Shown: in pieces, positions 1,955-61,430 of the stretch
Position numbering within the stretch: position 1 is the first letter of the stretch
How the letters are laid out: each line of letters begins with the position of its first letter
Virus record (IMG/VR): IMGVR_UViG_2061766007_000697
Length of the DNA: 64,000 nucleotides
Origin: an uncultured virus (IMG/VR IMGVR_UViG_2061766007_000697)
Taxonomy: Duplodnaviria; Heunggongvirae; Uroviricota; Caudoviricetes
Direction: 5' to 3' (one strand)
Position numbers and translations under genes: made by a program
The notes under the pieces: model-generated
Told to the model about the DNA's origin: nothing
Database searches by the model: none
The model's input: the letters and a program-made list of their open reading frames with translations, nothing else

Positions 1955-4900
1955 ATGAACATTATTAAACGAGATGGCAGCGTGGCGGAGTTTGATAGAA
2001 ACAAAATCACACTTGCCATCAAAAAGGCACTGGAAGCCTGCGATATGGCCAGTGACACAATCGCTCTGAGTGTGACGGAGGATGTCGTCCANNNNNNNNN
2101 NNNNNNNNNNNNNNNNNNNNNNNNNNNNNNNNNTCGAGGATGCCCTTATGAAAAGAGGCATGCTTAAAGTGGCGAAGGCTTACATCAAGTATCGCTATAG
2201 GCACGCAATGGCTCGAAACGCTAATATTGAGTTAGTCAACGGCGCGTTGGATAAACTTGCTGCAAAGCATGTGGTGAATCAGAATGCGAATGTTGACGAA
2301 GCGTCTTTCGGGGGTCGTATAGGAGAGGCTGCATCATTTGTCATGAAGAAGCTGGCGCTAGATTTCAAGATGTCAGAGGTTGCTAAAAACAACCACGAAA
2401 ACAACTTGATATACACGCATGACCTCGATATGGTTGCAATTGGTGATCACAACTGTTTAAGCATACCCTTTGATACTCTTCTTGCCAAGGGCTTTAAGAC
2501 GAGACAAACAGATGTTAGGGGTGCTCAGTCGGTAAATACAGCATTTCAGCTTTTGGCCGTTATTTTCCAGCTACAGTCGCTTAATCAGTTTGGAGGAGTA
2601 AGTGCAACACATCTGGATTGGACAATGGTACCATATGTGCGCAAAAGCTTCAAGAAGCACTTCTTGAAGCGGGCGTTTGATGAGTTCGTTGTCAACTATA
2701 AAGCTCCCATGAATTTGAGCAATGATCTCAAATATTATGTGAACAAATATCCAGTCGTGGAAGAGTGGCTTAGTCTCGATAGAAAAACCATACGACAGAT
2801 GATTAAAGCATTTGGCCAGTGGTATGTCAATGAAGAGGGTCTTACAGTTGAAGACTTTACATTTGACAGCAAAAAGTTAAATCGTAAGATTAAGAATGCT
2901 GCTATTTATGATACAGCAGAAGAGGCTCGGNNNNNNNNNNNNNNNNNNNNNNNNNNNNNNNNNNNNNNNNNNNCTGCCAGCTGCCTTTTACTTCTTGTAA
3001 TACAGGAACTTGCACAATTCCGGAAGGTAGATTAATTACAGAACTCTTCCTTGAGGCCTATATCGAGGGCACGGGCGCAAATGGAAGCACACCTATCTTC
3101 CCATGTGCGATCTTTGTAATGAAAGATGGTATCAATAAAAAGCCGACTGATCCTAATTATGATCTGTTTAGACTGGCGCTTAAGGCTACATCGCTCAGAC
3201 TCTATCCAAACTATGCCAATGGAGACTGGAGTTCTCAGAAGGCATGGGTTCGNNNNNNNNNNNNNNNNNNNNNNNNNNNNNNNNNNNNNNNAGCTGTCGG
3301 CACTCATTAGTCGTATACAGCAGGAGCCTGTTGTTGGTACTAAGCTGTCTCTTATTCTAACTGATGGCAAACTGTCTATTGACCCAGCAGAAAGACCTAC
3401 GGAGCAGTTCTCAACTATGGGGTGCAGAACTGCTAATGGCTTTGATATCAATGGGTTACAAAGTTATAAACTTGCCATTTCACAGGCAATATCTAACCTG
3501 CCAATAACCGTTGATTTGCTCTCAGCAGCGCAAAAGGATGGTAGAGGAAATATCTGTCCTGTCACAATCATTTTGCCAGAACTGGCAATGATTGCAAACA
3601 GGAATACAGAAGTCTTCTTCCAGATTCTTGAGCAAAAGCTGGAAGAGGCTAAAGACCAGCTTATAGNNNNNNNNNNNNNNNNNNNNNNNNNNNNNNNNNN
3701 NNNNNNNNNNNNNNNNNNNNNNNNNNNTATATTGAGTCCGAAGGCATCAGAAGCGCGCTACAGCATGGAACTCTTGCCATAGGACAAATAGGTGTTGCAG
3801 AAACGCTTCAGCTTCTCATCGGCAAGGACCAAACATCTCCAGAAGGATNNNNNNNNNNNNNNNNNNNNNNNNNNNTCAGGAATAAGTATAAACTGAATTT
3901 TGGGGTCTATTATTCTCCAAGCGAATCTTTGTGTTACACATCATTGAAGAAGTTCCAGGCCAAGTATGGTAAGATTCCTAATGTTTCTGACAAGGAATTC
4001 TTCACCAACTCGATGCACGTGCCTGTCTGGAAACGGATGGATCCACTAACTAAGATAGACATCGAATCTCAACTGCTTGGTTATTCTTCCGCAGGTGCTA
4101 TCTGCTACGTCGAGNNNNNNNNNNNNNNGGTTCTTTATGCGATGGACAAGGATGTCCCTTATTTTGCCATAAATGTTCCAAACGATCATTGTGAGACATG
4201 TGGTTATATAGGAGATATTCCTGATAATTGTCCTAAATGCGGTGGAAGCTCTATTATGCGCTTACGTCGCGTAACTGGGTTATCTTGAGCAAGAAATGCC
4301 CATAAACTGTTGTAAACCTGAATAATATATTCGGGGTTCTCTTAGCCGGCGTGGCAGTAGCCTGCATAAGTCAAATAATTACTAAGAGGGTATCAAGAGA
4401 TGAATGATACAACCAATTCAAACCTTGAGTTCAGGAAAATTCCTTCGCTCAATTATCTGTATGAAGTTAATTCCAATGGAACTATCTTCAGAAATGTTAA
4501 ATCAAAAAAGCAGAGCAAGATAAAGCTCGATATGCACCACTCCAAGAAAGGTTATTATGCTGTTTGGGTTCACCTCGGTGGTAGAGGTCCAAATAGTATT
4601 ATTAAACGTGTTATGATTGCACACGTTGTAGCTGAATGTTGGCTTGGCCCTAAACCAGCTGGCATGGAAGTTGATCATATCGACCGTAACAGCCATAACA
4701 ATGATTACAGAAATCTTCGTTATGTCACAAAGAGTGAACAAATGAAGAATAGAGATCATAGTGGTATAGCTGCTCGCGGTACAGCTAATTTACTTGAGGC
4801 TTGTGCAGAGCGCTCTAAACCTGTTGCGCTTACTAAAGACAATGTGCGAACAGTGTATCCTTCACAAGCTGCTGCTGGTAGATTTTTAGCAGAACAGACA

Positions 4901-5110
4901 GGCTATACAGTAGGAAAGGCCTGTTATAGATTGAGTGCTGGTAGATCCCATATATGGGGCTATGATATTGAATACCTGAATGCAGAGACTGTACACAACG
5001 GCTCTACGGAGCAAGAAACAGTCCACTAATGTGATTTAAGCTCAGATTATCATCACTTTAATCTTGGCAAGCAGAGTGAAGTTATTCACAGAGTCAAGCA
5101 CATAGGGTAA
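1955..5110 (+). CDS. nrdD: Anaerobic (class III) ribonucleoside-triphosphate reductase. Exon 1 is 1955-4280 and exon 2 is 5034-5110; the apparent frameshifts coincide with N-gaps
   Basis: N-terminal ATP cone (IIKRDGSVAEFDRNKI), NQNANVDE, HDLD..HNC, QFGGVS, MGCRT, GRGNI, FFTNSMHVPV and a CxxC..CxxC Zn site. Splicing restores RRVTGY-LSSDYHHFNLGKQSEVIHRVKH, which contains the glycyl-radical motif. Confidence 0.95.
4281..5033 (+). mobile_element. Group I self-splicing intron in nrdD
   Basis: The 5' exon ends GGGU and pairs with GCCC in the IGS (U.G at the splice site). The intron ends in G. P7-forming GCAGAGACTGTA (~4982-4993) and AAGAAACAGTCC (~5013-5024) are present. Removing the intron gives a continuous NrdD C-terminus. 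Confidence 0.92.
4400..5029 (+). CDS. Intron-encoded HNH homing endonuclease
   Basis: YEVNSNG, AHVVAECWLG, EVDHIDRNSHNNDYRNLRYVT (HNH_3 type) and a NUMOD1-like C-terminus; lies inside the intron. Confidence 0.92.
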   Translation: MNDTTNSNLEFRKIPSLNYLYEVNSNGTIFRNVKSKKQSKIKLDMHHSKKGYYAVWVHLGGRGPNSIIKRVMIAHVVAECWLGPKPAGMEVDHIDRNSHNNDYRNLRYVTKSEQMKNRDHSGIAARGTANLLEACAERSKPVALTKDNVRTVYPSQAAAGRFLAEQTGYTVGKACYRLSAGRSHIWGYDIEYLNAETVHNGSTEQETVH

Positions 5111-13267: not shown

Positions 13268-13333
13268 AACTCGAAAACATCAAGAGTGGACACCAGGGAT
13301 ATAAGACCAGATCGATGCTTTAAGGAGAGCAGG

Positions 13334-14233
13334 ATGAACAGGTCAACAATCGAAAGTATCTCTACAGACAATAAAGACTTTTGTCTGGAGGAGATCGCTA
13401 AACTCAAGAAAGAGCGAGACGCAATCATACTCGCCCACAACTACACACGTCCGGAAATTCAGGATATCNNNNNNNNNNNNNNNNNNNNNNNNNNNNNNNN
13501 NNNNNNNNNNNNNNNNNNNNNNNNNNNNNNNNNNNNNNNNNNNNNNNNNNNNNNNNNNNNNNNNNNNNNNNNNNNNNNNNNNNNNNNNNNNNNNNNNNNN
13601 NNNNNNNNNNNNNNNNNNNNNNNNNNNNNNNNNNNNGTTGCCTATATCAACACGACTGCGGAGACCAAGACAGAGGTTGACATCTGCTGTACCTCCAGTA
13701 ATGCCGAGCAGATTATTAATTCCATCCCACACGGAACCAGGATTCTTTTCGTTCCAGACCAGAACCTTGGTGACTACATCCGCTATAAGTGCGATCGTCA
13801 TGAAGATATCGAGTTGTGGCCCGGTTATTGTCCTGTCCATAATAAGATCATGCCCTGGCATATTGAGGAGATGCATGAACAGCACCCAGCTGCAGAGGTC
13901 ATGGTACACCCTGCGTGCAGGCCCGATGTTGAGGTGCTTTCGGATCTCACGCTGTCTACAGGTGGTATGCTAAGGAGGCTCAAAGCCAATCCCCAGAAAG
14001 AATGGATCATTGGTACAGAAGCTAACATCATCCACCGTATGCAGAAAGAGAATCCTGGCAAGACGTTCTATCCTCTGGTGCCTACAGTCATGTGCCCTGA
14101 TATGAGGGAGATAACACTTGAACACGTTTTCTTTTGTCTGAAGGAGAGGGATCCTGAGATCTTATTGCCAGAAGAAGTGCTGCTTAAGGCAGCGAAACCC
14201 ATTAAACGTATGTTGGAGATATGCAATGGATAA
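13334..14233 (+). CDS. nadA: Quinolinate synthase A
   Basis: AIILAHNY..PEIQD, AYINT, DICCTSSNA, PDQNLG, GYCPVH, LSTGGM, IGTE, CPDM. Confidence 0.93.
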   Translation: MNRSTIESISTDNKDFCLEEIAKLKKERDAIILAHNYTRPEIQDIXXXXXXXXXXXXXXXXXXXXXXXXXXXXXXXXXXXXXXXXXXXXXXXXXXXXXXXXVAYINTTAETKTEVDICCTSSNAEQIINSIPHGTRILFVPDQNLGDYIRYKCDRHEDIELWPGYCPVHNKIMPWHIEEMHEQHPAAEVMVHPACRPDVEVLSDLTLSTGGMLRRLKANPQKEWIIGTEANIIHRMQKENPGKTFYPLVPTVMCPDMREITLEHVFFCLKERDPEILLPEEVLLKAAKPIKRMLEICNG

Positions 14234-14751: not shown

Positions 14752-15777
14752 GTGAATACTAAATATATTCCAAAGATAAGTGAGCAAATGGTTTTTGCTA
14801 CTTTGTATGGCAGCAGACTCTATGGTACAGATGGCCCTAATTCGGACACTGATATCCGTGGAGTCTTTTTGCCGTCAAAGGAGGATCTGCTCTTAGGCAA
14901 AGCACCAAGGCATTATTGCTTCAAAGACGACAGAGACGTATCTTATCTCAGCCTTCACTATTTTCTGCAGCTGTTGACACAAGGCGAAACCAATTGCCTT
15001 GATATGTTCTTCAGTTACACGAACTACAAGGCAAAGATCTGTTCGTCTCCTATCTATGAAGAGCTTATTGCTAATAAGGATAAGCTGATCACCAGGAACG
15101 TCTCCAAGTATCTCGGTTATTGCAAAGCTCAGGCTTTAAAGTATTCCATTAAAGGAGACCGCATAAAGGACTATGAGGTGCTGCTAGATCTTGTGGACCA
15201 CGTTCCGAATCCTTCCAAGACACTTGGGGAAGCGCTGTCTGAGGTTGTTGTTCCAAAGTTGGCTGATCCTACGCCATATGATAAGAACGGCAAGGTAATA
15301 GGCAGACGCTTCAAGATCCTCGACAGCGTATTCGGTGATCATGCGTATTTTGTTGTGTTCGACAATTACGAGCGCTATTTCATGCTATCAGGGCATTTGT
15401 TTCCAATGAATGCCAACATGAACAGCACACGTGACTCGATCAACAAGTGTTTAGCATCCTACGGCAAAAGAGCTTTTAACGCAGCTGAAGATAACGGCGC
15501 TGACTATAAGGCACTGTCACATGCTCTTCGTGTTGCTTATCAGGCACAGCAATTATTGCTAGAGGGAGAGATAACTTTCCCGTTGCGTCCTCATCAGCTC
15601 AATGTAGTCAGATCGATCAAATTCAAGACAACCACTATGTCCTATGAAGAGTTCGTGGCTGCTATAGAGACCAACATCGAACACATAGAAAAAGAGTGTA
15701 TGCCTAATACACGCTTACCAGACAAACCCGACTGGGATTGGATCAATGCGTTCATTCTCAGACAGTACAAGGAGTAA
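14752..15777 (+). CDS. Pol-beta-superfamily nucleotidyltransferase (RlaP / T4 NrdC.11-like)
   Basis: GSRLYGT..PNSDTDIRGVF, YLGYC..QA.KY, DYKALSHALR, LPDKPD. Confidence 0.85.
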   Translation: MNTKYIPKISEQMVFATLYGSRLYGTDGPNSDTDIRGVFLPSKEDLLLGKAPRHYCFKDDRDVSYLSLHYFLQLLTQGETNCLDMFFSYTNYKAKICSSPIYEELIANKDKLITRNVSKYLGYCKAQALKYSIKGDRIKDYEVLLDLVDHVPNPSKTLGEALSEVVVPKLADPTPYDKNGKVIGRRFKILDSVFGDHAYFVVFDNYERYFMLSGHLFPMNANMNSTRDSINKCLASYGKRAFNAAEDNGADYKALSHALRVAYQAQQLLLEGEITFPLRPHQLNVVRSIKFKTTTMSYEEFVAAIETNIEHIEKECMPNTRLPDKPDWDWINAFILRQYKE

Positions 15778-24717: not shown

Positions 24718-25836
24718 ATGCAGTTTAAGTCTTTTCCTGAGATCGAATATGTGACACCAACTACTGTGGAGATGTGCCGTGCACAAGGGCTTGATAAAGT
24801 TCCGTGGTGTGTGACAGGCAAAATCGATGGCAGCAATTTTCAAGTTGCTATCGATGTTGATGACTCCATTCATTATGGTGGCCGTAACGGAGAACTTGGC
24901 AGATACGATGACTACAACAACTATCGCCGCGCAGTTGCTAATCAGGACCTTGAAGCTAGGGTGCGAAAGCTAAAAGAATACCTTGATGCATACGAGCTTC
25001 TCGATGTCGTGAAGGATGGCCCATATATCTTGATCTGCTACTTTGAGCTGTGCGGTGGTATCTACAGACATAAGGATGTTCCGCCTGTATCAGGGGCTAT
25101 CAAGATCCAAGGCAGAGTACAGTATCACCCTGATAACGTCGTTATCGGTCTGGATATCTTCTGGTATCAGCCCGTTACTAAAGACAGCGGATGGCTGGCA
25201 CCTGAGATAACTAATCATTATTTTGAGAAAGCTGGCTTACCCCATAGAAAGATCCTGGCGACGCTGTCCTTTGATGAGGCGATCATGTACCCGAATGATT
25301 TTGAGGATACCACTGCCAGTGAGATGTTTGGTCTGCCACAAGTAACGCCTAACATCACAGAGGGCATTGTTATCCTTCCAAAGATACCTGCAAAGTTCGC
25401 TAATGGCTCCAGGGCTATTCTAAAGAGCAAGAATCAGATCTTTTATGAACGCGGCATCAAGACCAACAGGGTGAGACATCCTTCTACGCCTATGTCCGAG
25501 CTGGACAAACAGTGGTTTGATATCTATATGTCGTTCATAACTGAATCCAGATTGATGTCGGTTATCTCGAAGATTGATGTCACGCATCTCACCAACAAGG
25601 ATTTCAGTGTTATTCTAAAGAACTTCCTTGATGATGCCGATAAGGACTTCCAGAAGGAATACGGGGGACAGATCAAGGTGCTGGAAGGAGAGAAGTCTTT
25701 GGAAGAGTTCAACTTCATGAAGGTTTTGAAAGCTGCCAAGCAGGAAGCAGCTGCAATGATCAGGCCTAAGTTCGTCGAATTCCTGCAGAAGAATAAGATG
25801 CAGAATGAGTGCACTGACCAGACAGCAGAACCATGA
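24718..25836 (+). CDS. RNA ligase, Rnl2 family
   Basis: FKSFPEIE, WCVTGKIDGSNF (motif I), ELCGG, IQGRVQYHP, EGIVI, ILKSKN..FYE, ITESRL.SVISK. Confidence 0.88.
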   Translation: MQFKSFPEIEYVTPTTVEMCRAQGLDKVPWCVTGKIDGSNFQVAIDVDDSIHYGGRNGELGRYDDYNNYRRAVANQDLEARVRKLKEYLDAYELLDVVKDGPYILICYFELCGGIYRHKDVPPVSGAIKIQGRVQYHPDNVVIGLDIFWYQPVTKDSGWLAPEITNHYFEKAGLPHRKILATLSFDEAIMYPNDFEDTTASEMFGLPQVTPNITEGIVILPKIPAKFANGSRAILKSKNQIFYERGIKTNRVRHPSTPMSELDKQWFDIYMSFITESRLMSVISKIDVTHLTNKDFSVILKNFLDDADKDFQKEYGGQIKVLEGEKSLEEFNFMKVLKAAKQEAAAMIRPKFVEFLQKNKMQNECTDQTAEP

Positions 25837-26462: not shown

Positions 26463-26711
26463 ATGACTCTGGAAGAGTTTAATAGCACACAAGGCCGCTG
26501 TCCAAAGTGCTGGAGTGATGCCATAGAAGAGGAGCATCATGATGATCCTGAAGCCGGGTTAAAGGATGTTATATTGCTGCGTCCTTATTATGATGTTTAT
26601 GGTCGTAATGTCGACGGCTTCTATGTAAATTGCATATGCACCGAGTGTGGATGCGTGTTCAGACAGCGCTATCACTTGAGATATGCAGGGCAACAGGAGA
26701 TAACCAGATGA
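26463..26711 (+). CDS. Small zinc-ribbon protein
   Basis: CPKC...CTECG. Confidence 0.65.
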   Translation: MTLEEFNSTQGRCPKCWSDAIEEEHHDDPEAGLKDVILLRPYYDVYGRNVDGFYVNCICTECGCVFRQRYHLRYAGQQEITR

Positions 26712-27949
26712 GAGACTTAATTCTTTTAAGAGGTGCTCCTGCTTCTGGAAAAACGATATGGCTTCGTGCAAATAACCTTGAGCCTTATGCTATCTCTCCT
26801 GATAGTGTAAGGCTCATGTATTCTTCACCTGTACCTGATCCCGCTACTGGAGAGATGCAGATGAATATGCGCAACGAGCAGCTTGTGTGGGACTTCATTG
26901 AAGACATCATGACACTGCGTATGCGTACTGGGCAATTCATTGTTCTTGATGCGCAGGACGTTCGTTATGACAGATGGATCAAGCTTGCCAAGCAGTTCTA
27001 TTACAACGTCTGGTACAAGCAGATCGATGCCACTAAAGATGAGTGCCTTGCACGCAACGCAGCCAGGGATCCTCTGCACAGGCTTCCAGACTATGTTATG
27101 TTACAGGCATTCATGTGGCTGGAGAACAATCCAATGCCAAGCAGTGTATGGCCTGTTACAGATTCTGTTGTAGCTGGCACTATGGAACCAACGGTTGTCG
27201 ACAAGTACAAGCGTATTCATTTCTGCGGTGATATCCATGGTAGCTACGTCCCGCTGAAACATTTCTACGATGACACAGACGGCTTCAATGAGAAAGAGCT
27301 GTTTGTGTTTGTTGGAGACTACGCAGATCGTGGTACGGCGCCTAAAGAGACGCTGGAATTGCTCATGGAACAAAGGGACAAACCCAATGTGATCTTCCTT
27401 GAGGGCAACCATCGCAGTGAGCGCATATGGGTAGACGCCTGTAAGGATGAGATCAGATCCAAAGAGTTTCTCTATCGTACCATGCCTAAACTGGATGGTA
27501 TTGATAAAAGAGCACTGAAGGAGTGGTGTCACAAATGGCAGCAGCTTGCTTATTTGCAGTACCATGGTAAACGCTATTTCGTCACCCATGCTGGTATAGG
27601 CTATATGCCAGAACACATCAGATGGATCCCAACACAGACATATGTTCGTGGTGGTGACTATGAAGAAGATGTGGAGCGTGAATGGTGTGAACAGTGTTAT
27701 GGCTCAGATCTAATTCAGGTGCATGGACATAGGAACTTCTATGGATATGATATGGAAGAAACCGATGAGAGCATCAACCTTAACAGTCCTGTTGAATTCG
27801 GAGCAGACTGGAGAGTGCTTACAGTAAGCAAGGATACTATCGAGTACCACTACTATCCGAATCCCGACCATCAACCTATTAACACAGCTCTGGCAGAATT
27901 CATGCTTGAGCCTAATAAAATCATAGGAGACGCTAATGGAACAAAATGA
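26708..27949 (+). CDS. Polynucleotide kinase / metallophosphoesterase (Pnkp-like, no ligase domain)
   Basis: P-loop GAPASGKT, SPD.VR, CLARNAAR; phosphoesterase motifs GDIHG, GDYADRG, GNH, THAG, HGH. Confidence 0.88.
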   Translation: MRDLILLRGAPASGKTIWLRANNLEPYAISPDSVRLMYSSPVPDPATGEMQMNMRNEQLVWDFIEDIMTLRMRTGQFIVLDAQDVRYDRWIKLAKQFYYNVWYKQIDATKDECLARNAARDPLHRLPDYVMLQAFMWLENNPMPSSVWPVTDSVVAGTMEPTVVDKYKRIHFCGDIHGSYVPLKHFYDDTDGFNEKELFVFVGDYADRGTAPKETLELLMEQRDKPNVIFLEGNHRSERIWVDACKDEIRSKEFLYRTMPKLDGIDKRALKEWCHKWQQLAYLQYHGKRYFVTHAGIGYMPEHIRWIPTQTYVRGGDYEEDVEREWCEQCYGSDLIQVHGHRNFYGYDMEETDESINLNSPVEFGADWRVLTVSKDTIEYHYYPNPDHQPINTALAEFMLEPNKIIGDANGTK

Positions 27950-28817: not shown

Positions 28818-29717
28818 ATGAAGAAGTGCAGGATACTTATTTTAAACGGTGGCGGATGTATGGGGGTGCTTGAAACGCATTTCCTCTCAATGCTTTCCGC
28901 TGAAAAGCAGAACCTGTATGGGATAGATCTCATAGTAGGTGCGAGCATAGGTGGAATCTTGGCTGCCGCTTATGCAGCAGGCCAGCCTTTTAAGCTTATT
29001 GATGATGCTTTTCAGAAGCGTGCAAAAGAATGCTTCACCAAGCGCTGCATGGCAAAGATAAACCCACTTGCTTGTCCTACATACAGATCTGATTGTTTGG
29101 AGACTGTTGTAAAAGCAATGGTTGGTAGTGCCAAGCTCGGAGATGTTAAAAACATTTATCCTGATCTGCACGTTGTTATCCCCTCTGTCAATCTGTCTGA
29201 CGACATCTATACACAGTTTTCTAATTTCACACATGAGTATGATGATATACCCTTGTGGAAACTTGGTATGATGACATCGGCCGCTCCTACTTACTTTGAT
29301 GGGCAAGATCTGGATGGCAAATGTTATGTCGATTCAGGCATCGTCGAATGTGACCCCTTACTTACTGCAGCTACAATGGCTAAGAAGTTTCTTGGTGTTC
29401 CTTTCATACGGCAAAAAATCCTGATGCTTGGAACAGGGATGGATAGAGATCCGACTCCGATGCCAACAAAGCGCTACAACAGTTTCAATAAGCTTGATGT
29501 GTGTACCGAGGTGTTGTCTGAATACACATGTCTGTCTAATAAACTGTTTGTTAAGCAAGTAGCTAATGGCCTTGGTCTAGGATATTTCAATTTCTGGAAC
29601 CCGGTGCAAGTTGAGGGTGATTTGGCGGATTGGAAGAGCATACCAAAATGGGTAGCCGAGGCAGACAACCATAAAGAAGAGTTCCTTAAAGTCTGGGACG
29701 AATGGATGGCTGACTAA
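28818..29717 (+). CDS. Patatin-like phospholipase
   Basis: LNGGG, GASIG nucleophile elbow, SAAPTYF, DSG in place of DGG, LGTG. Confidence 0.88.
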   Translation: MKKCRILILNGGGCMGVLETHFLSMLSAEKQNLYGIDLIVGASIGGILAAAYAAGQPFKLIDDAFQKRAKECFTKRCMAKINPLACPTYRSDCLETVVKAMVGSAKLGDVKNIYPDLHVVIPSVNLSDDIYTQFSNFTHEYDDIPLWKLGMMTSAAPTYFDGQDLDGKCYVDSGIVECDPLLTAATMAKKFLGVPFIRQKILMLGTGMDRDPTPMPTKRYNSFNKLDVCTEVLSEYTCLSNKLFVKQVANGLGLGYFNFWNPVQVEGDLADWKSIPKWVAEADNHKEEFLKVWDEWMAD

Positions 29718-34557: not shown

Positions 34558-36475
34558 AAGAAATCATATGGCCAATATTGGCACTTGTTGGTATCTTCAC
34601 TGTGGCTGTGGTTACCATGGGAGTAATCAGAAGCTGCGATCAACCTGACACTAATTTCGTATTCGACAAGGGAGACTACAGATATGTCAAACTTGAAGAA
34701 GAACAATTTAACCAACTCATCAAAGCGCTGGAAAACATAGCCAGTGCAAAGGAGGACAAGTGAGTAAAACAATTACAGTCGGAGACAGTGTATGGTTCTG
34801 GTATTATGATGATGGAACCTATAATGTCTGGTATGGGGATGTGAAGGCAGAAGGTCCTTATGGTTCTGTCATCATTTCGTATCTGTCGTATATCGATCTT
34901 GAGGCAAACGAAAAAGAACCGTATGAAGTCGAATTCACTGTTGCGCCCTTCCAGATCTTTGAGACCAGAGGGGAAGCTGTAAGCGATGCAGCAGCTCAAG
35001 TCAGAAAAGAGATCGATCAGGCTGTAGAGGATGATCTTAAGCAGAACAACGAGGCCAAGCTACAGTGGGAAGAGAGAACACGAAGGCGCTTTCCATATAA
35101 AGANNNNNNNNNNNNNNNNNNNNNNNNNNNNNNCGGCTGTGGAATTGAAGCACGGTACTGTCTCTAAAGAACCTCGATCAAAGCAGCCTAAATGGTTCTG
35201 CCTGAAGCTTGATGAAGGCCCAGAGGAAATGGTTCCTGTTGCTTTTTGTGCAGATACTCCTGAGGAAGCTGCCAGGCTTTATGCGGATAGCATCTATAGG
35301 CAACTCATNNNNNNNNNNATTGTATCCTTCCTGAAGGTATTGTCTTATCACACGCTGTGCTATGAAGCGCGCATTGTATTGATAAGGCCTATCTATCCTG
35401 GTGATACGAAGTTGTCGTTGAGGGAGCTTCCTGTCTTTGAGGCCAGATGGAAAGATGAAATCTTCTCTGCCTGGGCTATGCAGCCTACTCTGTTTAATAA
35501 GTTCGTTGTAAATAACGGCGACATCATTAATGCCGAGCAACTGTTTGACATCAAATTTCCTGATGCAAAGTTATTGTTCGACAATCTTGGCTCAGAGCAG
35601 ATCCTTCCTTATCCTGCAAGACAAGCAGCAGCGCTTGCAGGCGTCAAGTTACAAACAGCGAAGATCATTAAAGATGCTGGTCTCACTGTAGACTACAAAG
35701 TCCTTAGTGATGCATTAACTCAAATCATCCAACTCCCCACACCAAAGAAAGGAAACTAAACAATGACAGACTCCATCTATGAAGAACCCGGCGATGATTN
35801 NNNNNNNNNNNNNNNNNTTAGACGTGGGTGATCTCCCAGAAATGGGGGAATTCGTCATTGATAAGACAGCCAGAACCATGATGGCTCTGGATGAGCGGAT
35901 CGCCGTGCGTACTTATGCTTTCGCTACTAGAAAAGAGAAGTATGAGCTATACAGACGATTCAAAGGAATACGAGGCTCGTTAAATNNNNNNNNNNTAACC
36001 ATTACGGGCGACAGCAACTGCAGAGCGGTCGCCCTATTCTTTTATAAGGAGAGTCAAATGCCAAAACATGATTGTCGTGATGATCGCACAGGCCGTTTTC
36101 TCAAACTTTATTTTGATCCCATCACACCATCCAAATTTAATATTGGCGATAAAGTCTTTGTTGCCGACCAAAAGGATGGTAATTGTTGGGAGATGGAAGT
36201 AACTTGTGTTATGCGTCATCAGAACAATAACCTTATTCCTATTATCTCATACAATCTGGTTAATAAGCTCGGTAGTATGGTGCTGTTCAGAGAAGAGGAC
36301 ATCAATGAGACTAATGTATTTGCTACCGAGCTGGATGCCCTAAAGTATCTGATGAAGAACATTATTCCATGTGAAAGACAGCACCTGAACTATAAACTGC
36401 GCGAGCTCAAGAAAAAGGCTGTCAGCTATGCAGAAAGAATTAAAGAACTTGAAAAGGAAAAGAGACGATCAAAGT

Positions 36476-36865
36476 ATGAATCTTCCAAACATACAAGAGC
36501 TCTGTCCCGGTGAACTTGAGGATTTTGTGCTTGAGCTCGTCCGGAAGGAATATAACAGAATCCCTCCGGACGTCTTTTGTAGACGCAAAGAACTCTGCCA
36601 GGCAATTCTCTCCTGTAACAAGGAGAAAGGCAACAGAGCAACCATGAAGGAAGCATTGACCTCTAATCTTAAGACCTGGTGCGCCAGGCAGGATCAGATC
36701 AATGCTATCGAACGACTTGGGTTTACTGTAACAAAAGGCAGGACCCATTATAAAATTCGCGCCAACGGCTCCAACTATTTCGTAGCCTTGGCAGCAACTC
36801 CAGGAGATAGAAAAGGNNNNNNNNNNNNNNNNNNNNNNNNNGTCCGTTTTCTTCTAAGGAGCTAA
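36476..36865 (+). CDS. Protein with a C-terminal HicA-like domain
   Basis: LGFTVTKGRTHYKI...LAATPGDRK. Confidence 0.5.
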   Translation: MNLPNIQELCPGELEDFVLELVRKEYNRIPPDVFCRRKELCQAILSCNKEKGNRATMKEALTSNLKTWCARQDQINAIERLGFTVTKGRTHYKIRANGSNYFVALAATPGDRKXXXXXXXXXVRFLLRS

Positions 36866-37216
36866 ATGAAAACAGAGCCGCAAATCGGCGATTTTGTGTG
36901 GATTTATATCTACGACAAGATCTGGAAGTGCGAGGTCAAAGAACAAAAGCCCATGTGGTCAGATGCTGATCAGGATATGGGACTCTGCTATGAGATCAAA
37001 CCAATAGGCGAGACTTGTCCAGGCAGAGAAAATGGTTTCCTTATCCAGAGAAAATATTTCTTCAATACAGCCAGAGAAGCTATTAATGAAGAAATCAAAC
37101 ATAAGAATGCTCTCATTAGAGAGCACAAGAAAGCACTTGAGGAAGCCAGAGCTAATATCAAAGAGCTGAAACAAAAGCGTGCAGATCTTCAGCGCTTATT
37201 AGAGCATTATCACTGA
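36866..37216 (+). CDS. SH3/KOW-like + coiled-coil protein
   Basis: PQIGDFVWIY...FFNTAREAI followed by a coiled coil. Confidence 0.6.
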   Translation: MKTEPQIGDFVWIYIYDKIWKCEVKEQKPMWSDADQDMGLCYEIKPIGETCPGRENGFLIQRKYFFNTAREAINEEIKHKNALIREHKKALEEARANIKELKQKRADLQRLLEHYH

Positions 37217-37239
37217 CCTATATTATGCACTAAATAGGT

Positions 37240-37253
37240 GGCATAATATAATG
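37240..37253 (+). promoter_or_regulatory. Promoter-like motif preceding the ncRNA locus
   Basis: GGCATAATATAATG, identical to the copy at 23493. Confidence 0.7.
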
Positions 37254-37609
37254 GTGGGTTNNNNNNNNNNNNNNNNNNNNNNNNNNNNNNNNNNNNNNNC
37301 CTATCGGACGTCTTTCAATTTCTGACAACAAGTATTCATAACGTCAACTAATAAGTCTGTCAAAACGGGTTGAGTCGGTTTACTTGTTGTATCTTTTTCC
37401 TGCAGGCAGTTTAACTTCTATTCATCCGGTTTGGGTTAGGGTTATGCGAGCATAGCCTGCCTGCAGGATCTTATTAAACAACGCACTGGAAGCCGTCGTG
37501 GGCGTCGGTATCCTTTCCTTCCAGTGCGTTGTCCTTTTGTCCTGCGCGGAAGAGTGTGGTTATGGCTCTCTTTCGTGTGGATGGCTTTCGCGCAGGACTT
37601 TCTCAATCA

Positions 37610-37774
37610 TGCCCTATGGACCTAGGCGTACCAACGCTATTGGCGGGTCCCAATGCGAGGTAACTTGTGAGCGCTCGTGGTAATACCGGTCACTGCGCAC
37701 GAGATATATCAGGTCGAAGCATTGCATGCGTTTTAAGGCAGCGTCATGAACTGCCCAGCATGGTTAGGGCGCCA
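37610..37774 (+). ncRNA. tRNA-like three-armed RNA ending in CCA
   Basis: (T)GCCCTA/TAGGGC(G)-CCA acceptor-like stem enclosing arms GGACCT/GGGTCC, CAATGC/GCATTG and CATGC/GCATG. Confidence 0.55.
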
Positions 37775-37857
37775 TTTTGACAGCTGGTGCTAAATAATGA
37801 TTAGTTGGAAACGAGGCATCTAATCGCATTTCTTCCGGGCATCAGCTGTCTTTCATC

Positions 37858-38041
37858 TTGCCCGTAGCTTAATCGTATCTCCTCAATATCAGAGGAGGTC
37901 AGTTAAATCTCATATCAAGTCTTCTAGAAGCTGTCTTGGGGTGCCTGTCGCGAAGGAGCCCAAGCATAAGATATATGGGATAATCAGAGCGCCCCGAACA
38001 GATCGGGGAATGATGCAGGTGCAAACCCTGTCGGGCAACCA
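37858..38041 (+). tRNA. Atypical tRNA-like gene (CAG at the anticodon position) with a ~116-nt D-loop
   Basis: Acceptor TTGCCCG/CGGGCAA+CCA; TA; D-stem GCTT/GAGC; anticodon stem CCCCG/CGGGG with loop AACAGAT; T-stem GCAGG/CCTGT with loop TGCAAAC. Confidence 0.65.
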
Positions 38042-38375
38042 TTAAAATCCATGCCATTGACAGCTGCAAACTGTCATGGTCTGTCTTGAGAGGCTATCAG
38101 ATCAGGGTGTGTTGCAGCATACTCCTGTGAGGTGTCGTCCGCGCAAACGGCATATATAGGCTCTCGCTGGGGTGAGTGGCATCCCACTACTTCGGCAATA
38201 AGAATGGTCATTGATATTGGATAGCCCAGGTGCGGCTTTAATGGGAGACAGGAACCCACCGGTATTAGTGAGATGGCGTAGCAAAAAGACGGATAAGCTA
38301 CGACTGAGGCCAAGGCGCTGCTCAGATGAGAGTAGCCCTTGGCTTCTTTTTAGTCTTAATATAAAGACTATAGCG

Positions 38376-38389
38376 GGCATAATAGAATG
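38376..38389 (+). promoter_or_regulatory. Promoter-like motif
   Basis: GGCATAATAGAATG after a terminator-like hairpin and upstream of an SD-led ORF at 38422. Confidence 0.7.
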
Positions 38390-41065
38390 ACGTCTTAACA
38401 AACAAAAGAAAGGAGTGTCTTATGCTGGTATACAAAGTTATGCCTAATGTATGGGGTGTCCGTTTTCACCTCATCGACGATATGGACCTTGACTTAGAGG
38501 TCATTAGGAATCATGACTCTGTTTGTGTCAGTATCTGGATCGCAGATATNNNNNNNNNNNNNNNNNNNNNNNNNNNNNNNNNNNNNNNNNNNNNATTCAG
38601 CTTTTGTCCGGCGGCATTAGCTGGCGCTCTGGTGTTGTGCAGCATGGGCATTTAAAAGTCTCAGGGCATGAGGCCCTGCCAACTAAGTTAAAATTACTCG
38701 ATATCAACAAGGAGATAGATCTTGTATATGAATATTGAGGAGATGGGCCCCTGATGGGGCCCTCTATTCNNNNNNNNNNNNNNNNNNNNNNNNNNNNNNN
38801 NNNAGCAGCTATGTCCACACCAAACATGTCGATTATCATACTCTTCAGCGACCAGGATGCTAAAGATGTATTCAACCCATCTCCATTCTGCCAGATACTT
38901 ATGCGCTCTAAGTGCATACACTTTGTAGAGCCGAAGGATCCTGGCATGGAGCTTTCTTTCAGATTCAATGTGTGGTTTGATTCAGCTGCTATTCTTCATG
39001 AAGNNNNNNNNNNNNNNNNNNNNNNNNATACAGCATAACAGATCTATCGACGTCTTCCTTGCTGCCTATCAGATGACAATACCAGGTGCACTCGCTTCCT
39101 ATAGATGGTCCAAGGATGACCCTTATAAGATGGTACACAAATTTCTGGTAAATCCTGAAGCCTATTACAGGACCATTCCCATAGAGTCACTCGCGCACCA
39201 TGCCTGTCAGGNNNNNNNNNNNNNNNNNNNNATGTTAACCCTACTTTAGATCCAAACGAAATCATCATAGCACCATAAGGAACCACCCATGAAACAGATC
39301 CATATGACCTTTCCAAATTACCCTATGCTAGGATATTTCCTCAACATGTTCAACAATTCACAATATACGCCGCAGTATACGCTTACCATGAACGGCCCAG
39401 CTACCGAAGCGGTTACAGTTGTCATTCAGTNNNNNNNNNNNNNNNNNNNNNNNNNNNNNNNNNNNNNNNNNNNNNNNNNNNNNNNNNNCAGCTCCCTGTC
39501 CTTTACGGTCATGGAAGATATGCCCCTTGTCATGGAATCACAGTTCGTGGTAGTTGATCATGGTTCAATCTGCTGAGGCTATTGCGGCATTCTTGCTGTT
39601 TCTTTTATTCCTGGTTATACTGGCTATTGTAATAGGACTCAACTATATTATGCAAAACCACAAGTCACAGCAACGCTATTATGAGGAACCGGCTACAGTG
39701 TATGTGACTTGACGGTTTGTCTAATAAAGCATAATAACAACATGGGAGAAAGATCATGCCTGATTCACATATAGATCTTAAAGGCAACACCAATTACGTT
39801 CTGCTCAAAGACGTTTCTGACACAGTCGTCGTATCTGCCGGTGCTGCATCCGATCAAGTGACTATTGGCGGNNNNNNNNNNNNNNNNNNNNNNNNNNNNN
39901 NNNGTAATTGGCGGTTACACTGTTACAAATATCGATACGACTTCTGGTTATAAGATCCGCGCAGAGCAGATCTTTTATATGGTACCCAGAACTTCATTGG
40001 CTGCATTGGATCTTATCGTCGGTCCNNNNNNNNNNNNNNNNNNNNNNNNNNNNNNNNNNNNNNNNNNNNNNNNNNNNNNNNNNNNNNNNNNNNNNNNNNN
40101 NNNNNNNNNNNNNNNNNNNNNNNNNNNNNNNNNNNNNNNNNNNNNNNNNNNNNNNNNNNNNNNNNNNNNNNNNNNNNNNNNNNNNACTTTTGGATGTCAT
40201 TCATGTTCTTACACACCATCACCCGACGTACCCTATCTTGAATCGCCCTGTGCCACTTGCAAGCTCGCAGTAGAGTACACCAACACAAAACGAGCTGCCA
40301 TGTTCGATTCTGCAGGTGGTTCTGATTTCGACTCCGAGGAAGAAGAGGATTCTGCACTCGCTCGTGTTGANNNNNNNNNNNNNNNNNNNNNNNNNNNNNN
40401 NNNNNNNNNNNNNNNNNNNNNNNNNNNNNNNNNNNNNNNNNNNNNNNNNNNNNNNNNNNNNNNNNNNNNNNGGCGTTGTCATCAAACTCCTCAAGCTTGG
40501 GCAAGTCTCTCCTATTATGCTGGAACTCGTCACCAAGAAACTTCAGTACCCGCATATGTCCTATTCAGAGCTCGGCGCTTCTATGTCTACACCCTTCTCG
40601 AAACAGANNNNNNNNNNNNNNNNNNNNNNNNNNNNNNNNNNNNNNNNNNNNNNNNNNNNNNNNNNNNNNNNNNNNNNNNNNNNNNNNNNNNNNNNNNNNN
40701 NNNNNNNNNNNNNNNNNNAGCGTATTCAAGGCATTCTTTATGGCGAGAACGACCCTTCTTTCACTGCACACAGGCTTAAAGAACTTAATGCTATTCTTCA
40801 GGCTCCGTTCCTAATATCCAAAGAAGCTCTCGATTTCAACCCCTATATCAAGGATGAGATGGAATGAACAACTCCGATAATCTGATAGCTATCTCTATGA
40901 AAGAGGCAGGCTGGGAACTCGTCGAACACTATACAGGTTCTGATAAACAGCTTGTAAGTTATATGAATGATCTCAATACCAATGATGGCTATGATTATTG
41001 CGCCGCGCTTGAACCCGGACTCTTCGGCGGACAAATCTGGACCATCTACAGAAGGGAGACAACCA

Positions 41066-58604: not shown

Positions 58605-59546
58605 ATGGATTTCGCATGGGCTGTGGAAGCACTGCGACGCGGTCTCAAGGTCACACGGGAAGCATGGGAGGGTGATCCGCCGATGCACCTGTACAGGGTG
58701 ACAGAGAAGCCGGACGGCAAGTACATTATCAAGATGCACATAGGCACTGGCCAGGACTTCGAGTGGACTCCTACAGCAGAGCAGATGCTCACTGTGGACG
58801 ACTGGGAGGAATATGTGGAGCCAAAGAAGAAGCCTATGTTCGGTAACACCAAGCTGACATTCGATGAGAATGGACAGCCACACATGGGCGACACCATGAC
58901 CGTCGAGGAGTGTCAGAAGGTACACAGCGGCGAGAAGCATACATTCAAGGATCTGTGCGATGACTATCTGGAGCAGCAGAAGGGCAAGGTTCAGATCAAC
59001 GAGCTGCCCTTCATTACGACACTGGAGCAGCATGGTGGTGAGCCTGTCTGTGAGTCCTATCCCGCGCTTGAGAAGGTTTGGACCACGTTCTACGACCTGG
59101 ATATCCAGATTACAGGCACAATGGTGAACAAGGAGGACTATCCGTACACGTTGTGTGAGCGTGATGTGCTGGAACAGCATGGTAATAAGGTCGTGGTGCT
59201 TGCAGAGCCTGGTTTTTCACAGCGCACAGTCACACTGACGCTTGATGAAGACTGCTGGGATAATGCGAGATCCGTATCAGCTGATCTGGTGCACAGGGTC
59301 GCCACCAGGTATGGCTGGAACATGGAGTTCTTTATCAGTCTTCTCAAGAGCGTTGATACTACTAAGGGCAATTACAACAAGGAGTGTCACGGTGCTGGCA
59401 GCGCCACATTGGGCCAGCAGTTCGCCGAGGACATGGAGTATTGGGCGCAGGAAAACGCCAAGGTCATGCACAGGCTGCATTACATCATAAATCAGTATAT
59501 CAGCATAGTGCGAGATAGCGTAAGCTATGGTACGGATCATGACTGA
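58605..59546 (+). CDS. DUF2829 / Tad2-like N-terminal domain fused to an unknown domain
   Basis: MDFAWAVEALRRGLKVTREAW...MHLY...WTPTAEQMLTVDDWEEY. Confidence 0.75.
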   Translation: MDFAWAVEALRRGLKVTREAWEGDPPMHLYRVTEKPDGKYIIKMHIGTGQDFEWTPTAEQMLTVDDWEEYVEPKKKPMFGNTKLTFDENGQPHMGDTMTVEECQKVHSGEKHTFKDLCDDYLEQQKGKVQINELPFITTLEQHGGEPVCESYPALEKVWTTFYDLDIQITGTMVNKEDYPYTLCERDVLEQHGNKVVVLAEPGFSQRTVTLTLDEDCWDNARSVSADLVHRVATRYGWNMEFFISLLKSVDTTKGNYNKECHGAGSATLGQQFAEDMEYWAQENAKVMHRLHYIINQYISIVRDSVSYGTDHD

Positions 59547-59734: not shown

Positions 59735-60290
59735 ATGAAATATACAGACCTTTACAAGCAGCTTATCAAGAAAGCAGAAGAGCAGGAACCAGAAGAGACC
59801 AAAGCCACCGAAACTCAGACAGAGGTTAAGGAAGAAGCCGCTACCAACGATACCGAGACAGATGACTCAAGTAATGCCGTGATCGATATGCTGCGCAAGA
59901 TACTGGCTGACGAGGTTGTCTCGTATTATGCCTACTTTGCAGGTGCCAAGAACATCCGTGGCGAGAATTGGATGGATGTCAAGCAGGAATTTGAACAGCA
60001 TGCAGAAGATGAGCGCGGACACTTTGAGGCTATCTTCGGTCGCCTCTATCAGCTTGGATATAACTGCCAGGATATGCTTAAGGATGTCCAGAGCAACTGT
60101 GGCTACNNNNNNNNNNNNNNNNNNNNNNNNNATGAAGCGGAGAAGAAAGCTGTAGAGGCTTATGAGAAGCTGCTGACTTATATTGCAGAACAAGAGCCTG
60201 GTAAGAAAGACTTCGTTACGCAGCGCCTCGCAAAGCAGCATCTGGAAACAGAGCAGGACCACCTGCAGGATATGGAACGGCTGGTANNNN
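59735..60290 (+). CDS. Ferritin-like (bacterioferritin/DPSL) protein with an acidic N-terminal extension (end lies in the N-gap)
   Basis: LADE...Y..Y, EQHAEDERGH, EAEKKAVEAY, ETEQDH di-iron ligands. Confidence 0.85.
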
Positions 60291-60313
60291 NNNNNNNNNN
60301 NNNNNNNNNNNCC

Positions 60314-61430
60314 ATGTCTCCAGAGGAAAAGAAACTTAGACGCTTAGCCAAGCCCTATTATGTAGAGCATGGCAATAACTCATGGGATCATATACAGCAG
60401 GTCTATAACAACGCCAATGCTATGACACAGCAAATATATGCTCGTCCGCTTACTTTGTCTGAGAAAGCAGCTATCTTCTTTCACGATTCGGCGGTTAAAT
60501 CCATGGGGCGCAAGAATCATGGGCAGAATGCAAGAGACTTAGCTGTTCCTATTCTGCTTAGTACGGGTTACTTTGATCAGAAGCAGCTTGATGATATCGN
60601 NNNNNNNNNATACGTTGGATAATAAAGGTGGGCCATTTACATCCACAACTGGAGAGGTGTTGGCATCGGCTGACACAGAGCCACCGGATATTCCTTGGAT
60701 GCTTAATAAGATGTATGGGTGGCATATAAAGAATACGCCAAACAAAGCAGACTGGAAACAGGGCATCTATGATTCAGTAAAAGAGTACTTTGGGCCTGAT
60801 GTCAACGCACTGCAGCCTCCTCTGTATAATCAGTTTCATAAAGACCGTCGCAGGATCATGAAGGAGAAATTGAATTCATATAGTGCAGATGAGCTTTGGG
60901 ATATCGTAACCAAATACAGAAAGAGACACAGAATAGGTGAAGATGAGATCAAGTATCCCAATACCACGCTGATGAAGGCAGCTAAGCTCTTGTATCATGG
61001 CTCTCCAACTTATATGGATGTTATATCTGCCAGTAAAACGAAAGCAGTACATGGAGCTGATGGCCATGTATTTATGACACCAGATAAATTGTTAGCGTCA
61101 TGCTTTTTGTTAAATAAGCAACGTGTCATGGATAGACTAGAAAAGCAATTTGGTAAACGCGTAACTAGTAGCACTGTCGGTTATGACGTTTGGAACATGA
61201 CACCAGAGGAACGAGCAAAAGTCAAAGCTATTAAAGTGCTGGTTAAAGATGTTCCTGGAATAAAGCCATTTGTCATTAAACAACGTGGTTACATATATAG
61301 CGCAGATGTTCCAGAAGATAGGATATCTCAATATATGGNNNNNNNNNNNNNNNNNNNNNNNNNNNNNNNNNNNNNNNNNNNNNNNNNNNNNNNNNNNNNN
61401 NNNNNNNNNNNNNNNNAGTCTGCCGAATAA
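60314..61430 (+). CDS. HD-domain protein with a C-terminal ADP-ribosyltransferase-like domain (gapped)
   Basis: WDHIQQV, AIFFHDS, NHG (HD); LYHGS...VFMTPD..LA...GYIY (ART-like). Confidence 0.6.

Follow-up and report, generated by a model that had tools for sequence, protein, structure and literature searches.

The window analysed here is a 64-kb stretch of DNA from an uncultured virus (IMG/VR record IMGVR_UViG_2061766007_000697; positions are counted from its first letter), which looks like a portion of a large uncultured phage. Nearly all genes in the window are on the plus strand, and its longest plus-strand gap without an open reading frame (ORF), 1205 nt at 37217-38421, holds a real, uncatalogued and modular phage locus of non-coding RNA (ncRNA). 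The first-pass annotation, made from the letters alone, had proposed a structured ncRNA locus here, and the locus proved to be genuine, with its own promoter-like motif and terminator. The predicted transcription unit of about 1.1 kb would extend from 37253 to 38354 on the plus strand, from motif to terminator, with no ORF in it; both ends are placed by these signals. Sequencing runs labelled as bovine gut metagenome contain this locus, and the comparative data come from contigs aligned on 36842-38549, which belong to one DNA run (X3) and to three runs of RNA libraries (X11, X13 and X18). The window has 76 masked runs of N; one of them (37261-37299) lies over what is presumed to be the 5' end of the RNA and is outside the analysis.

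The promoter-like motif is the 13-mer GGCATAATAKAAT (37240-37252, plus strand), located directly 5' of the RNA, whose start is presumed from it. There are four exact copies in the window (23493, 37240, 38376 and 49822), all of them on the plus strand and intergenic, and 11 matches with up to two mismatches versus 3.5 ± 2.2 in shuffled sequences. Weaker copies were also found at 52453 and 53159. Probably, GGCATAATAKAAT represents a phage-specific promoter class. At the other end of the locus, a hairpin of 17 bp in two segments is followed by a U tract (38306-38354, plus strand). The stable GC-rich hairpin itself (38306-38346, pair probability 1.0) with the U tract on its 3' side is that of an intrinsic terminator, in agreement with the terminator-like hairpin of the first-pass annotation; a simple terminator scan missed it owing to the loop and stem limits of that scan. 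The second copy of the motif (38376-38388, plus strand) serves the next gene, which has a ribosome-binding site at about 38409 and its ATG at 38422. We infer that the locus is a separate transcription unit. Alternatively, the locus might be a long structured leader or attenuator for cis control of the downstream gene at 38422, because it lies directly 5' of this plus-strand gene and several of its hairpins are followed by short U tracts, which could be leaky terminators. However, a very stable terminator and a fresh copy of the motif stand between the RNA and the gene, the length of 1.1 kb is far beyond known leaders, and the modules described below recur in relatives with different neighbours. 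Such a leader is very improbable.

The stretch after the motif had been called non-coding, and it remained free of ORFs under every stop reassignment tried. No ORF of at least 100 aa was found on either strand of 37217-38421, the longest being of 99 and 79 aa, both on the minus strand. When TAG, TGA or TAA was reassigned singly, no frame was opened across this gap, and the six small ORFs of the locus gave no match in Pfam or PHROGs at E≤0.1. Moreover, relatives carry indels of 1-2 nt at 38200-38275, inside the two longest minus-strand ORFs, which would frameshift both of them. Coding readings by alternative genetic codes or small ORFs were rejected.

Five hairpin units on the plus strand, with lengths of 66, 71, 55, 60 and 72 nt, are each closed by their own stem, with short U-rich linkers between them. 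Unit 1 (37325-37390, pair probability 0.98) has a closing stem of 10 bp (37325-37334/37381-37390, complementarity 100%) and an inner hairpin, and an RNA-library contig of a relative spans 37300-37410. Unit 2 (37398-37468, 0.92) is closed by 12 bp (37398-37409/37457-37468, 100%), unit 3 (37478-37532, 0.97) by 15 bp (37478-37492/37518-37532, 100%) and unit 4 (37539-37598, 0.65) by a 14-nt stem (37539-37552/37585-37598, 93%). Unit 5 (37779-37850, 1.0) has a 13-bp closing stem with G-U pairs, of which 12 nt (37779-37790/37839-37850) are 92% complementary; in the X13 relative this closing stem is unaltered, while the interior has nine changes. All five of the stems quoted by the first-pass annotation for such units with U-rich linkers were present. 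Perfect stems of at least 10 bp with loops of 15-60 nt number four in the 560 nt of 37301-37860, compared with five in the other 62.8 kb of the window and a mean of 0.01 in 300 first-order Markov resamples. The folding z-scores of the plus strand are -3.58 for 37301-37860 and -4.89 for 37851-38350, and none of 100 shuffles was as good in either half.

The direct repeats in the locus are limited to the promoter motif and two short two-copy pairs of chance size. This agrees with the earlier view that the units are unlike in sequence and do not form a CRISPR array, since regular direct repeats are absent. For the same reason, namely that regularly spaced direct repeats were not found, both a CRISPR array and the repeat array of a type III antitoxin were rejected. 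Integron attC-like ends were also considered by eye, as units 1 and 3 start with ACAAC and end with GTTGT; the idea was dropped because such ends are missing from the remaining three units and there are no cassettes between units. Separately, the interior of unit 5 (37792-37806) has a perfect 15-nt antisense match to the plus strand of a gene for Rnl2-type RNA ligase (25209-25223). This is the best antisense match of the locus, and a match of this length also appeared in 16 of 500 resamples, so it is marginal and not convincing.

Besides these hairpins, larger modules are predicted on the plus strand. Module A (37610-37774) is a multibranch RNA of about 165 nt, drawn from predicted helices, with a closing stem of 6-7 bp and then CCA (37772-37774). 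The block 37607-37777 is conserved as a whole in an RNA-library contig of a relative, and of six substitutions in module A four keep pairs, two are at unpaired positions and none breaks a pair. Module C (38038-38208) is a three-branch RNA of about 170 nt, likewise drawn from predicted helices, and no other part of the locus is present in as many RNA libraries: 38085-38215 is covered by contigs of all three RNA runs compared, and 38125-38170 has no listed change in X3, X13 or X18. The loop of its most conserved hairpin (38139-38146) carries a self-complementary GCGC and also a 7-nt complement to a stem strand of unit 4 (37543-37549); a kissing or other tertiary contact is possible. Module D (38208-38271, pair probability 0.93) is a hairpin closed by 13 bp that bears two small hairpins at its apex. 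Relatives vary in this module, with four one-sided changes that keep pairs and one double compensatory change (38243/38257), and in X13 it is replaced by 134 unlike letters. Downstream of it, a segment which we call the 3' hub (38278-38302) has alternative pairings, locally (38278-38282/38297-38301), with the 5' end (37302-37315) or with the 5' part of element B (37863-37876), and it is kept in the X13 relative.

Element B (37858-38041, plus strand) is a tRNA-shaped RNA. By eye, it has a 7-bp acceptor stem (37858-37864/38032-38038), U8, a 4-bp D stem (37867-37870/37987-37990), an anticodon-like arm (37992-38008), a T arm (38015-38031) and CCA (38039-38041). Its D-loop contains an insert of about 106 nt (37871-37976 from the deletion limits that yield a tRNA) with two hairpin domains (37869-37906 and 37907-37981; helix probabilities 0.79-0.99). 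Only after removal of this insert in silico does element B become the canonical four-arm cloverleaf with a 7-bp acceptor, a 4-bp D stem, a 5-bp anticodon stem with 7-nt loop and a 5-bp T stem with 7-nt loop. With one segment deleted, ARAGORN called a cloverleaf at the default threshold in 38 of 143 variants. When every single deletion of 20-140 nt was tried across the locus, 50 calls were obtained, all at the element B site and all on the plus strand, while a control scan of the rest of the window (4.85 million variants) gave scattered calls with 1-3 variants per site. On the native sequence, ARAGORN found no tRNA in the 64-kb window; relaxed and intron options gave no tRNA in the locus until the threshold of 80%, where the calls are junk. 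Similarly, no tmRNA was called at the default or -ps thresholds, and there were only junk permuted calls at 80%.

The anticodon loop of a textbook tRNA has U33 and a purine at position 37, and the T-loop has U54-U55-C56. In our reading against textbook tRNA positions, element B retains the partners of the tertiary core, with U8, A14, R15/Y48, G10-C25, G26/A44, G53-C61, U54, C56, R57 and A58, and its position 37 is a purine. On the other hand, position 33 is A and position 55 is G, and we therefore regard it as a mimic and not as a decoding tRNA. An alternative ARAGORN reading, in which the hairpin 37877-37899 becomes the anticodon arm (20 variants), was rejected for its poor D stem and artificial long variable arm. 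The first-pass annotation had described two CCA-ended tRNA-like RNAs; CCA does follow a closing stem in both, and the tRNA shape holds for element B and fails for module A, which gave no ARAGORN call in 235,011 double-deletion variants. The locus holds one demonstrable tRNA-derived module, element B. Nothing relevant on a phage tRNA-like RNA with a D-loop insertion was found among the literature matches listed. As a separate observation, the 5' arm of the first insert hairpin (37877-37889) is the exact complement of a 13-mer at 13860-13872 and 38732-38744, a match of chance-expected size; the latter copy is just 5' of an ATG at 38754 and resembles a ribosome-binding site.

Variation in the relatives was compared with the predicted pairing. 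The input was 37 listed substitutions in the locus, scored against the minimum free energy (MFE) fold of the sequence of the window itself, with six more substitutions and all indels left out. In the plus-strand fold, a pair is kept by 15 of the substitutions and broken by 7, and the remaining 15 are at unpaired positions. When changes of the same types were placed at random on positions of the same base, the expectation was 6.7 ± 2.0 kept (P=1.5e-4) and 16.6 ± 2.6 broken (P=3e-4). Scored on the minus-strand fold, 6 substitutions keep a pair, 12 break one and 19 are unpaired. In the plus strand, many pairs are kept by switches from G-U to G-C or A-U, which are sensible only for a plus-strand RNA, and one double compensatory change was found (38243 G>A with 38257 C>T). 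Among the modules, D (6 kept, 0 broken) and A (4 kept, 0 broken) give the strongest signal, and C gives a weak one. By comparison of sequences, these data show that selection acts on the pairing of the plus strand.

The same data bear on another possibility, namely an origin of replication, a site for packaging, a set of recombination hairpins or a similar element in which the dense inverted repeats would work at the level of DNA. The minus strand of the 5' half also folds better than shuffles (z -4.53), and the assembly of the X3 relative breaks near 37140, which would fit such an element. However, the G-U-dependent conservation of pairs is specific to the plus strand, whose MFE is below that of the minus strand by 23-33 kcal/mol in each half. 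Moreover, the locus has promoter and terminator signals and a tRNA-shaped module, and there are neither iterons nor direct repeats of that kind. We consider that a DNA-level element is highly unlikely.

The relatives also differ by whole blocks. In X13, the blocks 37607-37777, 37774-37872, 38042-38226 and 38282-38313 are kept with identity of about 90-96%, while 350 unlike letters stand in place of 169 nt and 134 in place of 55 nt. Other contigs diverge into unlike sequence at 37410, 37777 and 38215. These breakpoints are at or close to the predicted borders of modules, and the alignments show that modules are exchanged between relatives. In addition, contigs from three RNA runs of three metatranscriptome studies include parts of the locus, which is consistent with transcription but short of proof. 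The contigs of the RNA runs cover none of the coding flanks (36842-37240 and 38324-38549), and this carries no evidential weight.

Element B is tRNA-derived and yet has no U33 and a large insert, and the window has no intact tRNA by ARAGORN, as if the locus were a decaying tRNA island with remnants of tRNA genes and other RNAs that have no present function. Decay is hard to reconcile with substitutions that preserve pairing far beyond chance and with the maintenance of perfect stems of 10-15 bp. Copies from relatives are found in RNA-library contigs, and only one of the modules has tRNA ancestry. A decaying island is improbable.

The first-pass annotation had proposed that pairing of GGTGGGTT at 37253-37260 with AACCCACC at 38253-38260 could close the whole RNA. 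The complementarity is present; closure of the whole RNA by it is not favoured, because 38243 and 38257 co-vary in a local hairpin (38242-38245/38255-38258, which is preserved by 38243 G>A and 38257 C>T together) and 38253 and 38254 change without a partner in the 5' arm. In X3 and X18, the changes in the 3' arm are at 38253, 38254 and 38257, and the 5' arm has no listed change. Two other long-range pairings were predicted, a 5'-3' closing helix (37302-37315/38285-38295) and a 14-nt complement between 37863-37876 and 38289-38302. The local helices have pair probabilities of 0.8-1.0, compared with only 0.35-0.6 for the long-range ones.

These long-range pairings would fit one giant ornate RNA, similar in kind to GOLLD or ROOL, with a single architecture that is possibly multimeric. 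The 5' half of such an RNA would consist of variable hairpins, its 3' domain would be conserved, and the RNA would include a tRNA-like element. The locus has a single promoter motif and a single terminator, the partner segments of the possible closure and of the 14-nt complement are all kept in the X13 relative, and the conserved loop at 38139-38146 could form a kissing contact by its GCGC. On the other hand, a search of Rfam 15 including the GOLLD, ROOL and tRNA models, which had been suggested at the outset, gave no match at the gathering score in the 64 kb nor at E≤10 in the locus, so the locus is absent from Rfam 15 and, as far as these models can tell, membership in the GOLLD or ROOL families is excluded. 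In addition, the long-range helices are only moderate in probability compared with the local ones, and the closure by GGTGGGTT and AACCCACC is unsupported by variation. Whole modules are swapped or inserted (up to +181 nt), and a fixed three-dimensional architecture would hardly accommodate such changes outside its periphery.

GOLLD is a large RNA of phages and prophages in which the 3' part is conserved and the 5' part varies, and it is linked to tRNAs that are sometimes located in its linker (PMC12286853). As a large phage RNA, the locus resembles it in this contrast between the 3' and 5' parts and in a link to tRNA; it differs in having no Rfam match, a conserved core of only about 170 nt and whole modules swapped in relatives. 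ROOL was first found in cattle rumen; it is carried by phages and prophages, is often located close to tRNA islands and has no known protein partner (PMC12286853). The bovine source is shared, as the runs that contain our locus are labelled bovine gut metagenome, whereas the locus has no Rfam match and there is no evidence of the pseudoknotted fold of ROOL. We regard a single giant RNA as the main rival reading, possible but doubtful.

We favour, with a probability of roughly 0.55, a phage operon whose RNA modules fold independently and are probably released as stable small RNAs by cuts at the tRNA-shaped module and in the U-rich linkers. Of the two alternatives raised by the first-pass annotation, a polycistronic or modular precursor fits better than a giant ornate RNA, because relatives swap whole modules, stable helices are mostly local and one module is tRNA-shaped. 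A tRNA shape is a classic signal for processing. In the proposed scheme, the phage promoter motif would drive a primary transcript of about 1.1 kb that ends at the intrinsic terminator and encodes no protein. It would carry, as a string, the five closed hairpins, the 165-nt multibranch module, the tRNA-shaped module, the 170-nt three-branch module and the variable hairpin. This transcript would be cut like that of a phage tRNA operon, by RNase P at about 37857/37858 and by 3' trimming after CCA. Further cuts in the U-rich linkers would release several stable small RNAs, whose ends would be protected by the closing stems. At least the tRNA-shaped module might then act on the tRNA-binding machinery of the host as a decoy or hijacker.

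Such a role would fit a phage that carries an RNA-repair set of RNA ligase, kinase-phosphatase and RlaP. By Pfam and PHROGs, this set consists of an RlaP nucleotidyltransferase, an Rnl2-type RNA ligase and a protein with kinase (AAA_33) and metallophosphatase domains (14752-15777, 24718-25836 and 26630-27949). The RNA-repair genes show that tRNA damage matters to the phage.

Several points weigh against the operon of modules and the role suggested for it. The 5'-3' closing helix (probability 0.35-0.6) could join the modules into one RNA, and the 14-nt complement could likewise tie them together. The pairing test rests on only 37 substitutions from three close relatives, and in module C alone four changes keep pairs and four break them. 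The contigs from RNA libraries reveal neither strand, ends nor processing sites, and DNA can contaminate RNA libraries. Moreover, the RNA-repair genes are 9-22 kb away from the locus. With no U33 and a G at position 55, element B is no ordinary decoding tRNA, and it has no known partner; its function as a decoy is pure inference.

Among known systems, phage tRNA operons and RNAC and RNAD of phage T4 are the nearest analogues of the proposed operon. Phage tRNA operons are similar in that tandem compact RNAs with short linkers follow one promoter, the content of modules varies among relatives and a CCA-ended tRNA-shaped member is included. The difference is that the tRNA-shaped member here has the D-loop insert of about 106 nt and no U33, and the other modules are not tRNAs. 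T4 RNAC and RNAD are processed like tRNAs. They resemble the locus as phage-encoded ncRNAs alongside tRNA-type elements, and differ in that the locus has no intact tRNA in 64 kb and about nine modules in 1.1 kb; this comparison is by description and not by sequence. RNAC and RNAD are co-transcribed with tRNA-type genes and their role is unknown (PMC3014915).

Element B itself can be compared with other RNAs that contain a tRNA-like part. The tmRNA and the bacterial Y-RNA-like YrlA are tRNA mimics with large extra domains. Element B also joins a tRNA-like core of acceptor and T arm to a large non-tRNA domain, but it retains the full set of four tRNA arms, and its extra domain is located in the D-loop. 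In addition, the locus has no tmRNA call, tag ORF or Rfam match, and no Ro/TROVE gene was found among the 45 window proteins scanned. Tentatively, and with lower expectation than for any reading of the locus discussed above as operon or giant RNA, element B might be the first of a new kind of phage tRNA mimic, which has a complete L-shaped core with a two-hairpin domain of about 106 nt in the D-loop at the elbow and comes from a 1.1-kb operon of exchangeable modules. It would be either a decoy or hijacker of host proteins that bind or attack tRNAs, or a precursor in which the insert is an intervening sequence of a new type in the D-loop that is removed and resealed by the kinase-phosphatase and Rnl2 ligase of the phage.

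To our knowledge, phage ncRNAs are poorly charted, and GOLLD, ROOL and T4 RNAC/RNAD still have no assigned function years after their discovery. To these the locus adds about nine folded modules of RNA, which are uncatalogued and share one promoter motif, with evidence for selection on pairing and for presence in RNA libraries. Element B offers a concrete object for experiments, since its tRNA shape includes a large domain in the D-loop and the phage has RNA-repair genes. If the modules are decoys or hijackers of tRNA-directed functions of the host, they would constitute an RNA-level arm of the conflict between phage and host. Moreover, the swapping of modules among relatives suggests an evolvable system of RNA cassettes.

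With regard to the distribution of the locus, nothing in 50,697 phage records matched the window at the DNA or protein level (blastn of the locus in distant mode, 7.25 kb of upstream DNA and an 800-aa protein). No usable homologous locus was obtained by blastn of the locus against E. coli genomes, by exact-pattern scans of viral, metagenome and genome contigs, or by scans anchored on neighbour proteins (244 aa, 439 aa and an aligned 116 aa). The lone exact-pattern match in metagenomes (L001) proved to be a chance match by alignment. For the 116-aa neighbour protein, four homologues with identity of 78-88% were found.

The rest of the window has several genes of interest. The scan of the 45 proteins against Pfam and PHROGs identified, among others, ThyX, NadA, a patatin-like lipase and a tail-fibre-like protein. 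Some auxiliary genes are unusual in phages, namely those for quinolinate synthase NadA (13286-14233), patatin-like phospholipase (28818-29717) and a ferritin-like protein (59735-60622). The anaerobic ribonucleotide reductase NrdD is split into two or more pieces, and a gene for an HNH endonuclease follows about 600 nt 3' of them (2082-3035, 3126-3782 and 4400-5029); the split may be due to interruption by a mobile element or to an artefact of masking. The protein encoded at 58605-59546 has an N-terminal domain similar to Tad2 (Thoeris anti-defence 2; E 1.7e-9). Finally, three proteins encoded 5' of the ncRNA locus (34760-35167, 35779-36513 and 36866-37216) have by eye a common layout, in which an N-terminal or central beta segment of the 'GD.VW' type is followed by a charged coiled-coil tail, and they may be paralogues.

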